From a virus (taxonomy: Duplodnaviria; Caudoviricetes), in the IMG/VR virus record IMGVR_UViG_3300020043_005067, positions 1 through 40,063 of that record: DNA of 40,063 bases, one strand, 5' to 3'. Position numbers and translations under genes: made by a program. The notes under the pieces were generated by a model, which saw nothing but the letters and a program-made list of their open reading frames with translations, searched no databases and was not told where the DNA came from. Shown in pieces: positions 6,883-40,063 of the stretch (the stretch's first letter is position 1; every line of letters starts with the position of its first letter).

Positions 6883-6929
6883 CTGTTAATAAAATCTAAA
6901 AATCCACCGAAATGATAGGAAAAAGTGAG

Positions 6930-6937
6930 TATATTTG
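6930..6937 (+). promoter_or_regulatory. Bacteroidota -7 promoter element for the replication operon
   Basis: TATATTTG in intergenic DNA. Confidence 0.7.
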
Positions 6938-6966
6938 TGCCGTTAGCGACGCAATTATTTTAAAAA

Positions 6967-7113
6967 ATGAACCTACTAAGAAATACAAGGATGGGGTACA
7001 TACTTCGGTATGGTCTAATTGCGTCGCTGCTATTGGTTCAACCCCATCCCCTTTATTATTTACATCTAAAAGCAGCGACTAATGGCAAAAGATCCGGCAT
7101 TCTTATTTTATAG
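6967..7113 (+). CDS. putative 48-aa leader peptide spanning the structured RNA
   Basis: Read by hand: MNLLRNTRMGYILRYGLIASLLLVQPHPLYYLHLKAATNGKRSGILIL*; A-rich leader; overlaps initiator start out of frame. Confidence 0.35.
   Translation: MNLLRNTRMGYILRYGLIASLLLVQPHPLYYLHLKAATNGKRSGILIL
6989..7049 (+). ncRNA. putative c4/CI-like structured antisense RNA
   Basis: Closing stem GGATGGGGT/ACCCCATCC; CATAC-TTCG-GTATG hairpin; segment 7016-7031 complementary to 6945-6957 and 7071-7079. Confidence 0.6.
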
Positions 7114-8050
7114 TTCCGACTTCCTGAGCGGAACTCTTACAATGTCATTTGCCGATAAAGGGCAATACATAACGATATTATGTGCACTTCACCAAAACGG
7201 CAGATTGACGTTAGATGAAATGAAAATCGTTTGCAATAATAATCCAGTTTCCGAAAAGGTACTTGCAAAGTTTAAACAGGATGAAACCGGAGCCTATTTT
7301 AACGAAAGGCTTGATGAAGAAATTAATAAGAGAAAACGCTTTACTGAAAGCAGAAGAAACAGTCTCAATATTAACAATGACGACCAAGTTCATATTTACC
7401 TTTTGTTTAATCCAGTAACGGGTTTTTATAAAATCGGAAGCAGCAAATATCCACAATTAAGACTTACCGAAGTCCAAAAGAAAATCCCGACAGCGCAACT
7501 TTTCTGGAAAAGCGAAATTCTGGTTAATAGGTCGAACGAAAAAAAATTGCACGATGAATTTCAGGCAAAACGAAAATCTTATGATTGGTTTTCATTAACA
7601 GAAAATGACCTTAATAAAATCATAAACAATACAGAATTAAAACCTCGTACGGAAACCCGTACGGAAAATGAAAATAGAAATGGAAATAGTAATAGTAATG
7701 AAAAGGATAAAAGGGGTGTGGGGAAAAAAGGAAAAGCTTTCGTACCGCCAACCCTGCATGAGTTCACCAATTACTTTTTAGAAAACGAATTTGATGCTGA
7801 TCTGGCTAAACGTGCATGGACCGGCTATGCAGAAAACAACTGGCACGATTCACACGACAACCCGATACGTAACTGGAAAACGAAGGCACAACAAATCTGG
7901 TTTAAAAAAGAAAACAAAACAAATGGCAACAGAAATACAAGTTCAGCAACAGGATCAACTAATAGTACTGGAAGCGAAAAAGCTGGAAGGGCAACAGTTG
8001 ACGCACTTGACGCTTTTAAAAACCAAAGAAGTATGCCGGGAAGTGTCTAA
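7082..8050 (+). CDS. replication initiator (DUF1376/YdaU-like N-terminus) with internal T5orf172/GIY-YIG domain
   Basis: DPAFLFYSSDF..KGQYITIL; IYLL..YKIGSSK.P..RL..EKKLH.EF..KR...DWF; C-terminal FVPPT..Y..NNW..NWK. Confidence 0.78.
   Translation: MAKDPAFLFYSSDFLSGTLTMSFADKGQYITILCALHQNGRLTLDEMKIVCNNNPVSEKVLAKFKQDETGAYFNERLDEEINKRKRFTESRRNSLNINNDDQVHIYLLFNPVTGFYKIGSSKYPQLRLTEVQKKIPTAQLFWKSEILVNRSNEKKLHDEFQAKRKSYDWFSLTENDLNKIINNTELKPRTETRTENENRNGNSNSNEKDKRGVGKKGKAFVPPTLHEFTNYFLENEFDADLAKRAWTGYAENNWHDSHDNPIRNWKTKAQQIWFKKENKTNGNRNTSSATGSTNSTGSEKAGRATVDALDAFKNQRSMPGSV
7646..7700 (+). repeat. candidate origin: CGTACGGAAA x2 followed by A-rich hexamer-like repeats
   Basis: Copies at 7646-7655 and 7658-7667 inside the initiator linker, followed by GAAAAT/GAAAT/AGTAAT repeats. 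Confidence 0.4.
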
Positions 8051-21742: not shown

Positions 21743-21787
21743 TAAGGACATAACCAGACCTACCTAAAACCCTATATATAAAACACA

Positions 21788-27376: not shown

Positions 27377-27403
27377 TTAACCTAAAACAACCCTATATAT
27401 AAA

Positions 27404-28540
27404 ATGAAATTATTCGCTAAACAATATACTCCTGACATCTTTGATGCAACAGGATTGACCCTTGCAGACGATAACGCAACGGCAGTAAGTGAACTGGTAT
27501 TTGAAGAATCGTTTGCGATGAATGAAAGGAATAAATATTCCTCATTCTTAAAGTTCAATACAGGTATTAAAAACAAAAAGATCATTCCAATTCTGGGAGG
27601 CTTCACAGGTCTTGCAGGTCATGAATTGACAGGTGAAAACTGTACACCAACGGAATCGGATATGCAGATTTCATCTTATCAAAAGAAATGGGAGTGTATT
27701 TATATCGGTGATCGTTTAGTTGACTGTTATACGAACATTAAAGAAACATTCTGGACTTACTTCCGTCCGTCCGGCGTTGCAGGGCAAGACCCTTCACAAA
27801 ATCCGGCTTATGCTTCTTACGTGCAGATGCGATTACAGGAGTATTTGGCTGATCTGTTGATGTTCCGTATTCTGTTCATGAGTGATACAGATGTTGCAGC
27901 AGCAACAAACAACTCTTTAACATCTGATCAGTTGAAGTATTTCAATACTCATGATGGCATCATTAAGCAGTGTAAAGACATATTTGCGGCAGATGCAGAC
28001 CGTCAAACTACACTTGCTGAAAATACTCAGACAACTTATTCAACTCAGAGTTTCGATAACACGCCAATCGTTGTGGGTACTGTTGCAACATACAGAGCAA
28101 CGAACATTCTGAACAACCTTGTAAAGAATTCTCACATCGACTTAAAGCGTATTCCAAAGAACAGACGTGTAATTCTTATCTCTCAAACTATCGCAGATCG
28201 TTACGCAGAAGAAAGAAAAGCGATTACGAATGTTGATCTGGGTTATATCCGTACAGAGACAGGCATGGATATGTTTGTTTTCGATGGTATTGATGTAGTG
28301 ATCCTGCCAACTTATGACACACTTATCGAATCATATTACGATAACGGAACACGTCAATGGGAACCACACTTTGCAATTCATACAACTAAGGATAACATTC
28401 AGGTTGGAACATTGCAGACAACAGATTTCGAAACATTCTCATCTCACTACGACAAGACAACAAAGAAATGGTATTTGGATTTCGCATTCGACTTTGATGT
28501 GAAAGTTATCGTTGACCGTTTAATCCAGATTGCAATTTAA
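27404..28540 (+). CDS. major capsid protein
   Basis: 378 aa; follows the protease-scaffold; F.SDT...YF...DGIIK..., FDGIDV pattern. Confidence 0.82.
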   Translation: MKLFAKQYTPDIFDATGLTLADDNATAVSELVFEESFAMNERNKYSSFLKFNTGIKNKKIIPILGGFTGLAGHELTGENCTPTESDMQISSYQKKWECIYIGDRLVDCYTNIKETFWTYFRPSGVAGQDPSQNPAYASYVQMRLQEYLADLLMFRILFMSDTDVAAATNNSLTSDQLKYFNTHDGIIKQCKDIFAADADRQTTLAENTQTTYSTQSFDNTPIVVGTVATYRATNILNNLVKNSHIDLKRIPKNRRVILISQTIADRYAEERKAITNVDLGYIRTETGMDMFVFDGIDVVILPTYDTLIESYYDNGTRQWEPHFAIHTTKDNIQVGTLQTTDFETFSSHYDKTTKKWYLDFAFDFDVKVIVDRLIQIAI

Positions 28541-37342: not shown

Positions 37343-37350
37343 TATATTTG
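37343..37350 (+). promoter_or_regulatory. -7 promoter element
   Basis: TATATTTG ahead of a monocistronic gene. Confidence 0.6.
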
Positions 37351-37420
37351 TAATATGTAAAAAGGAGTATTCCGAAAATCCTTCAAAGAGTAGGAAAAAC
37401 CATGAAAAAATAAAAAGAAA

Positions 37421-39506: not shown

Positions 39507-40063
39507 ATGAAAACAACATTCACAAAAGAGTACATCATGCAGGAAAGAGGCTGCTATGAGCCGGAACAGGTCAATCAATTATCATTCATTAACCTTCCTG
39601 AAATCACCATTCACGACATTATTAATTCTGAAATACCGCTTAAAGATAAGTTTTGGTTTTTCATTAAAAAATGTGATTTACCCGATAATGACAAGAGGTT
39701 AATTGCTATTCAATGTGCTGAATTAGTGCTTCATATTTATGAAGAAGAATATCCTAATGACGACAGACCAAGAAAAGCAATTCAGGCAGCCAAAGATTAT
39801 CTGAACGGAACTATTGACCGTGCTGCTGCTGCTGCTGCTGCTGATGCTGCTTATGCTGCTGCTGCTGCTGCTTATGCTGCTGCTGCTGCTGTGCTGATGC
39901 TGCTGCTGATGCTGCTGCTTATGCTGCTGCTGATGCTGCTTATGCTGCTGCTGATGCTGCTTATGCTGCTGCTTCTGCTGATGCTTATGCTGCTGCTGCT
40001 GCTGCTTATTATTGTGATGATGCTGATTATTCTGATGTTCGTGCTGCTGCTTATTATGACTTT
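39507..40063 (+). CDS. Imm5-like domain protein with Ala/Tyr/Asp repeats (partial, runs off the end)
   Basis: Read by hand: MKTTFTKEYIMQERGCY...AIQCAELVLHIYEEEYPNDDRPRKAIQAAKDYLNG...AAYAA; no stop before the window end. Confidence 0.75.
   Translation, partial: MKTTFTKEYIMQERGCYEPEQVNQLSFINLPEITIHDIINSEIPLKDKFWFFIKKCDLPDNDKRLIAIQCAELVLHIYEEEYPNDDRPRKAIQAAKDYLNGTIDRAAAAAAADAAYAAAAAAYAAAAAVLMLLLMLLLMLLLMLLMLLLMLLMLLLLLMLMLLLLLLIIVMMLIILMFVLLLIMT
39822..40057 (+). repeat. GCT-based trinucleotide microsatellite
   Basis: (GCT)n interrupted mainly by GAT and TAT; phase break at 39891-39892. Confidence 0.95.

Follow-up and report, generated by a model that had tools for sequence, protein, structure and literature searches.

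A putative P4 CI-like RNA element in the leader of a likely replication initiator gene from a Bacteroidota-type phage

A sequence-only reading of the window (the whole stretch of viral DNA analysed here, 40,063 nt) had proposed that a small antisense RNA switch of the c4/CI type sits directly on the gene starting at position 7082. Is such an element present in this leader, does it belong to something wider, and how could it control the gene that follows? The promoter box, both targets, the antisense segment, the closing arms, the UUCG hairpin and the initiator ATG were all found where that reading had put them, and are listed with the other parts of the locus in Table 1.

Table 1. Parts of the leader element and neighbouring genes in the window.
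Feature	Position	Strand	Remarks
Promoter box TATATTTG	6930-6937	+	Bacteroidota sigma-A -7 box (TAnnTTTG)
Target 1, where the transcript is predicted to begin, ahead of and close to the leader-ORF start region	6945-6957	+	13-bp perfect complement of 7016-7028
Leader ORF (putative), 48 codons, running through the RNA	6967-7113	+	listed ORF; no Pfam or PHROG match
Stem-closed RNA domain, 61 nt, three-way junction	6989-7049	+	closing arms 6989-6997/7041-7049, 9 bp
UUCG hairpin	6999-7012	+	not common to the five other three-site leaders aligned
Antisense segment, 16 nt	7016-7031	+	complement of target 1 via 7016-7028 and of target 2 via 7023-7031
Predicted second pairing, 10 bp with G-U pairs	7029-7038 with 7077-7086	+	covers the initiator AUG; from the full-length MFE structure
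U-rich stretch after the stem	7052-7061	+	longest U-run 3; no canonical terminator tail
Target 2, stopping 2 nt before the initiator ATG (7082)	7071-7079	+	9-bp perfect complement of 7023-7031
Likely replication initiator, 322 aa	7082-8050	+	DUF1376-type N-terminal domain with inserted T5orf172/MUG113 domain

The perfect complementarity claimed for the segment, 13 nt with target 1 and 9 nt with target 2, was reproduced. Between 6880 and 7140 the only perfect inverted repeats of at least 9 bp are the three named here (13, 9 and 9 bp), and in dinucleotide shuffles of 6900-7100 a repeat of at least 13 bp, three repeats of at least 9 bp, or the triad each occurred in 0/1000 cases. The two targets are the segment's two longest complements in the whole 40 kb, both strands included (next best, 8 nt), and target 2 of this leader takes the best rank when set against 28 non-cognate regions. 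The 61-nt domain is predicted to fold with -23.6 kcal/mol (z -3.49), a stability reached by 0/200 shuffles. TAnnTTTG is the consensus of the Bacteroidota -7 box (PMC6847099), which occupies positions -12 to -5 (PMC9723704). With the TATATTTG box placed accordingly, transcription is predicted to start near 6942, and target 1 would then lie at +4 to +16. No -33 TTTG box is visible upstream of 6930, and no intrinsic terminator (GC-rich stem plus U-run) was called in the window leader. The sequence supports the window leader as a real RNA element, with a P4 CI/c4-like layout, on a likely replication gene.

The 322-aa product of this gene is likely a replication initiator, as judged from several partial similarities. 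In Pfam, its DUF1376 match (E 1.2e-4) falls below the cut-off and its MUG113 and T5orf172 matches lie above it. It also shows a weak match to PHROG 9327, a primosomal protein (E 5.5e-5). The structural model has a pLDDT of 87.5, and its N-terminal domain matches DUF1376 and Lin1244_N viral models. A PDB search with the protein gave no match at E<=0.001, the top row being a DnaD N-terminal domain (E 0.46), and no significant match came from the PDB sequence and fold searches or from NCBIfam. PMC5795418 mentions DUF1376 in passing. The T5orf172/MUG113 insertion maps to 7394-7630, and most relatives are 190-270 aa long. Many of its closest relatives in the genome collection are found in records titled Bacteroidota. 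According to PMC6847099, Bacteroidota do without Shine-Dalgarno sequences, and initiation is tuned by structure and by upstream adenines. Since the initiator start has C at -3 and at -6, occlusion of the start or delivery of ribosomes from the leader ORF could matter for its translation.

Comparison with other loci places the window leader in an uncatalogued family found before replication genes of Bacteroidota-type phages, with a layout of promoter, 5' target, stem enclosing a complementary loop, and start codon. Loci encoding relatives of the N-terminal domain (192, the DUF1376 set) provided 185 leaders with at least 150 nt upstream, window counted, which fell into 109 clusters; 29 of these have a promoter box 55-230 nt upstream. 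In 20/29 promoter-bearing versus 13/80 promoter-less clusters, the ATG is immediately preceded by a stem of <=-10 kcal/mol (p 4e-7). From the 29, 22 passed a -6 cut-off and seven were left out. The pairing of the stem interior with the leader's own first 40 nt was then ranked against that with 28 foreign 5' ends, a place in the top 3 being counted. The own 5' end reached it in 17 of the 22 leaders, window included, for 2.3 expected. Two further protein families of 80 loci each gave 7/20 and 5/8 in the same test, queries included. When the three protein-defined sets were pooled and the three query leaders removed, 5' pairing (a perfect run of at least 6 bp, <=-5 kcal/mol) was present in 37/47 leaders versus 4.1 expected, the leader clusters not being fully independent of one another. 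The covariation check suggested by the sequence-only reading is therefore positive for the segment and target 1 (the same 37/47), in agreement with its claim of a P4 CI/c4-like layout on a likely replication gene, and negative for target 2 as a general feature (2/47).

The pairing letters differ completely between clusters. Their behaviour is best followed in one clade of 50 loci and 24 distinct leaders, in which the target and the loop are both hairpin loops. Both sides change in five of the seven target-loop pairs and 99% of the cells stay paired; slid controls bring paired cells down to 33-42%, and the covariation shuffle count for this 24-leader clade is inflated by relatedness. There are six matched letter pairs and one mismatch among the 24 leaders. 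Variability amounts to 0.83 bits in the pairing columns versus 0.17 and 0.21 in the stems, about 4 times more, and the linker is almost invariant (0.02 bits). A second clade presents the same covariation by eye. Hypervariable pairing columns are the pattern expected of a specificity determinant, and the G-U changes tolerated in the stems point to RNA, not DNA. A role as DNA-level hairpin or origin was ruled out on the same ground. This covariation covers the family and other clades, rather than the window leader letter by letter; the searches turned up nothing nearly identical to that leader, and at protein level the best relatives share about 60% identity or less. The clade, of which L010:2901-3000 is an example, has a minimal kissing-loop version of the element, made of two hairpins and a U-run, and its six matched letter variants are spread among closely related phages of 32-35 kb.

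Additional loci were collected with pattern scans seeded on the window letters. These scans covered 7-30 of 64 parts, so that all their counts are among the matches listed, with one separate scan at 28 stretches. The resulting seed-selected sets are biased towards target 1, letters being shared, and were left out of the target-1 claim. Among the matches listed, hits of a search pairing the segment with target 2 were mostly chance, and the closing stem alone was no discriminator (22/50 versus 61/151 at <=-8 kcal/mol). Seed-selected elements precede Lin1244_N, DUF6291, BT4734/PriCT_2, PIF1 and SNF2 helicase, ERF and GIY-YIG genes among the matches listed, and primase families as well; 11 of the 23 proteins scanned had no Pfam match. 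The GenBank phage set yielded one match, unannotated.

These data bear on the idea that the leader is gated by a ligand or a protein, for example by the initiator itself or a host factor binding the folded leader in an autoregulatory loop. The near invariance of the linker within one clade would fit, and a kissing-loop/terminator topology is found in riboswitches: in the guanidine-IV riboswitch (PMC11611296), as in our leaders, pairing into a terminator loop is proposed to permit read-through. However, that riboswitch binds its ligand through conserved bases, in contrast to the hypervariable letters seen here. No nucleotides are conserved across clades, and the same layout stands before unrelated proteins (helicases, ERF, GIY-YIG). 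We consider such gating highly improbable.

Target 2 concerns a minority of leaders. By rank, it is found in 2/22 DUF1376 leaders, one of them the window (1/21 without it), in 2/20 and 2/8 leaders of the other two sets, and in 3/42 in a general scan, none of these counts being significant. A strict three-site test retained 2/47 unselected leaders (L707 and L779) versus 0.2 expected (p 0.018), the three queries being extra. Among the matches listed in the seed-selected sets, three sites occur in 4/22 architecture-positive clusters versus 4/179 others (p 0.006; p 0.027 without the window). Three-site leaders, whose letters differ, are thus a real minority subtype and not a family-wide feature. 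A run of at least 5 U before the ATG is present in 0/7 three-site versus 24/44 two-site leaders (p 0.011, post hoc), the seven comprising three queries, two unselected leaders and two picked by eye. The contrast with the other leaders, about half of which have the U-run, suggests that a single input can lead to either of two outputs, termination or occlusion of the start site. Two variants, in L358 (leader before 1637) and L392, have their second target on or just past the start codon and precede an ERF recombinase gene and an 80-aa unknown gene. Another three-site leader, with the window's seed letters, is located at a contig start about 130 nt after a tRNA gene (L558:76-147 and 281-430). It precedes only short ORFs with no Pfam match, and may represent either a decayed locus or an element placed at an attachment site.

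The sequence-only reading had also described a 48-codon ORF starting just after target 1 and running through the RNA. The ORF does run through the RNA. Its ATG is 9 nt downstream of target 1, and it overlaps the first 32 nt of the initiator gene in a different frame. In the DUF1376 set, the frame opened by the first ATG passes through the stem in 11/19 leaders versus 3.7 expected (p about 2e-4; 5e-4 without the window), three leaders having no ATG. Their ends lie between -11 and +46 nt relative to the initiator ATG. The two other protein sets gave 7/13 and 1/6, counts for which there is no null. Many leaders have no upstream ATG at all. The leader ORF is a frequent accessory, not a core part.

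How does this element compare with known systems? In the phage-plasmid P4, CI RNA pairs with the upstream seqA and the downstream seqC and represses P4's own replication genes (PMC4825925 and PMC3632133). The window leader shares with seqA-CI(seqB)-seqC an antisense segment inside the controlled leader, an upstream and a downstream target, and replication genes, here likely ones, as the object of control. Control of replication instead of an antirepressor had been put forward as novel, but P4 CI already blocks P4 replication genes (PMC4825925). The element is, from the comparisons made here, uncatalogued and widespread, while its logic is already known from P4. It differs from P4 CI in showing no sequence or Rfam similarity and in its Bacteroidota promoter; any processing is putative here, most relatives of the window leader have an upstream target and a U-run only, and most carriers are full phages in which no integrase was matched. 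Searches of the open-access literature yielded no description of such a leader element in Bacteroidota. It is not described in the passages compared from PMC2864571, PMC5737381 (a 224-motif paper), PMC3632133, PMC12360218, PMC11611296 or 10.64898/2026.09.22.753630.

C4 RNA is about 77 nt long, with three stem-loops, loops a' and b', and a GGW start for RNase P (PMC5320573). It is catalogued in Rfam as RF01695 and controls icd-ant of P1/P7 (PMC8198154). The window resembles the P1/P7 system in that an operon leader holds a stem-closed RNA together with a small ORF, that the specificity letters vary, and that one target lies where translation starts. In contrast to C4, the antisense segment is one contiguous piece, the domain measures 61 nt in the window and 31-78 nt in relatives, the gene downstream is likely a replication gene rather than an antirepressor, and RNase P marks are not conserved. 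A true but distant C4/CI member, i.e. a tRNA-like RNA with two antisense loops excised by RNase P, would account for the three-way junction predicted for the window RNA, its T-loop-like GTTCAA and a stem that begins with GGA, to be compared with the GGW cleavage motif of C4 (PMC5320573). However, the T-loop-like word and a CCA near the stem end are each present in 1/22 leaders, most of the 22 stems lack the GGA beginning of the window's stem, and many domains are simple one-loop hairpins. The Rfam covariance search of the window leader matched the element with no family, C4 included, and the Infernal check that had been suggested came out negative, neither C4 nor c4-2 appearing at E<=10 in the window or in 16 and 4 related loci. 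By these comparisons the window leader does not qualify as a C4 member, distant membership is very unlikely, and the RNase P excision evoked earlier finds no support in these data.

Two other systems deserve comparison. The Gifsy-1 IsrK-orf45-anrP locus (PMC4825925) also has a short leader RNA and a small ORF that runs through the structure to the next gene, but IsrK acts in trans as an activator of translation and its object of control is an antiterminator, whereas for our leader we infer repression of an initiator. In I-complex plasmids, as presented in PMC10286972, RNAI, a leader peptide and a rep pseudoknot combine a leader ORF, long-range pairing, a replication initiator and letter-defined groups, all of which have at least a putative counterpart here. 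One may ask if a counter-transcribed antisense RNA from the opposite strand blocks the target-loop pseudoknot according to the RNAI logic, the variable letters resembling incompatibility groups. However, between the stem end and ATG+80, a minus-strand TAnnTTTG box is found in 0/22 leaders (0.7 expected) and a relaxed minus-strand motif in 1/22 (1.8 expected). The I-complex RNAI differs precisely in being counter-transcribed, and we give such control here only the slightest chance.

The sequence-only reading had considered the two pairings as mutually exclusive. They do overlap, and full exclusion does not follow: the overlap is 6 nt only (7023-7028), and when target 2 is made to pair, the helix with target 1 is predicted to retain 7 bp, so that partial strand exchange is to be expected. 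The folding path was computed with nested, pseudoknot-free structures. During transcription, the pairing of target 1 with the segment is predicted to form once the segment is made, with P>0.99 up to 7060. Predicted full-length energies are -34.3 kcal/mol for target 1, -30.1 for target 2 and -29.7 for the closing stem. For 7066-7095 a mean openness of 0.54 is predicted with target 1 paired, against 0.29 with target 2 paired. In the nested ensemble, the closing stem is predicted to be occupied at 0.3-0.5% at two of three lengths and at 36% at 7085. The second pairing of Table 1 is compatible with the target-1 helix in the full-length MFE structure. As this helix is predicted to cover the AUG also when target 1 is paired, the ON state would be only partly open. 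The net gain predicted for binding in trans is modest, -4.7 and -3.4 kcal/mol. The helix over the AUG, the rarity of the closing stem and this small gain all speak against a plain two-state picture.

Our preferred reading, to which we assign a probability of roughly 0.55, is a P4 CI-style switch: acting in trans, a stable stem-closed RNA would capture either of the two targets, lower initiator synthesis, and provide feedback and letter-specific exclusion. It starts from the observed complementarity, covariation and hypervariability. The dose of initiator would be set by the partner choice of the 16-nt segment, either the 5' end of the message or the bases before the start codon. In a fresh transcript the predicted order of folding would let the segment take target 1 first and leave the bases before the AUG more open (ON). 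Beyond this point, we infer a free RNA, its action in trans, its sign and its role. Copies of the stem-closed RNA, freed by termination or cleavage, would accumulate and bind newly made transcripts, either at target 1 or directly at target 2. The initiator start region would then be covered, by the segment or by the RNA acting in trans, and the leader-ORF start would be blocked (OFF). In relatives with no target 2, the same capture would let the stem and U-run terminate transcription. Replication would in this way come under negative feedback, and phages sharing the segment would be excluded in a letter-specific manner. Action in trans is suggested by the hypervariability of the pairing letters; covariation by itself cannot separate pairing in cis from pairing in trans. 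Weighing against this reading are the rarity of target 2 among relatives, the low predicted occupancy of the closing stem from which a free RNA would arise, and a leader ORF that is far from universal.

The main rival is a switch acting in cis only. Here target 1 would pair with the loop of its own transcript, as a pseudoknot or kissing contact, and this pairing together with the leader ribosome would attenuate that transcript, kinetically or through coupled translation, so that the initiator is made in limited amount or with a delay; no free antisense RNA would take part. It fits all the covariation seen, the predicted early pairing of target 1 during transcription, and the position of the leader-ORF ends close to the initiator ATG. 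Precedents for its parts are a kissing loop dissolving a terminator, the mechanism proposed for guanidine-IV (PMC11611296), and the leader peptide that gates rep in I-complex plasmids (PMC10286972). That the carriers mostly look non-integrating also agrees with it. However, it names no input signal and leaves unexplained why letters change fourfold faster than stems, with six matched variants among 24 leaders of near-identical phages. We regard it as unlikely on balance.

The lifestyle of the carriers is relevant to the purpose of a P4 CI-style switch. A tyrosine integrase was detected in 2/16 element-bearing records, six of the 16 coming from one clade and three being judged by eye, and in 0/7 comparison DUF1376 records. 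HTH_3 matched in 5/23 records and S24 in 1/23; ParA and resolvase matched in 0/16 element-bearing records. In the window and three records with direct terminal repeats, none of integrase, HTH_3, S24, ParA and resolvase was matched. The statement that no integrase or CI is visible in this phage therefore holds for profile matches, in a record rated linear and 58% complete. One of the loci with the element is a provirus that encodes both an integrase and an S24/HTH protein. Its presence in complete phages with none of the five lysogeny or partition matches means that it is not tied to integration, and since most of the tested carriers have no lysogeny genes, the need for immunity is not obvious. 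A broader and more tentative proposal, which we hold as possible rather than probable, is that leader-derived antisense RNA with freely diversifying letters serves as an RNA-only replication licence in wide use among Bacteroidota phages, some of them complete and lacking any match to integrase, repressor or partition genes. It would have letter-defined exclusion groups and two interchangeable outputs, U-run termination and three-site occlusion of the start codon. In the literature compared, RNA immunity of the C4/CI type is described from Proteobacteria and their phages. If true, our proposal would add a version independent in structure, provide a first handle on how mostly uncultured Bacteroidota-type phages time or limit replication and on how close relatives exclude one another with no repressor protein, and offer Bacteroidota research an RNA regulator that is compact and re-programmable. 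For the question of action in trans, nature already supplies cognate and non-cognate pairs in the form of the letter variants.

In the window, the element is preceded by recombination genes and a DNA methylase and followed by terminase, portal and tail genes. Positions 1-121 form an exact 121-nt inverted duplication with 39674-39794 at the contig start, probably an assembly overlap; the genome may thus be closer to completion than the 58% estimate, with a mis-joined end. A low-complexity GCT/GAT/TAT repeat (39820-40060) encodes the alanine-rich tail of the last ORF, whose frame seems to be broken near 39890. A TATATTTG box with a DUF805b RNA directly behind it (Rfam, 47.1 bits; 37343-37396) precedes a small ORF where the late region ends. 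A AACAACCCTA-type motif is repeated right before late genes, at 21765, 26933, 27377-27410, 28537 and 31696, and is a candidate late promoter or translation signal.
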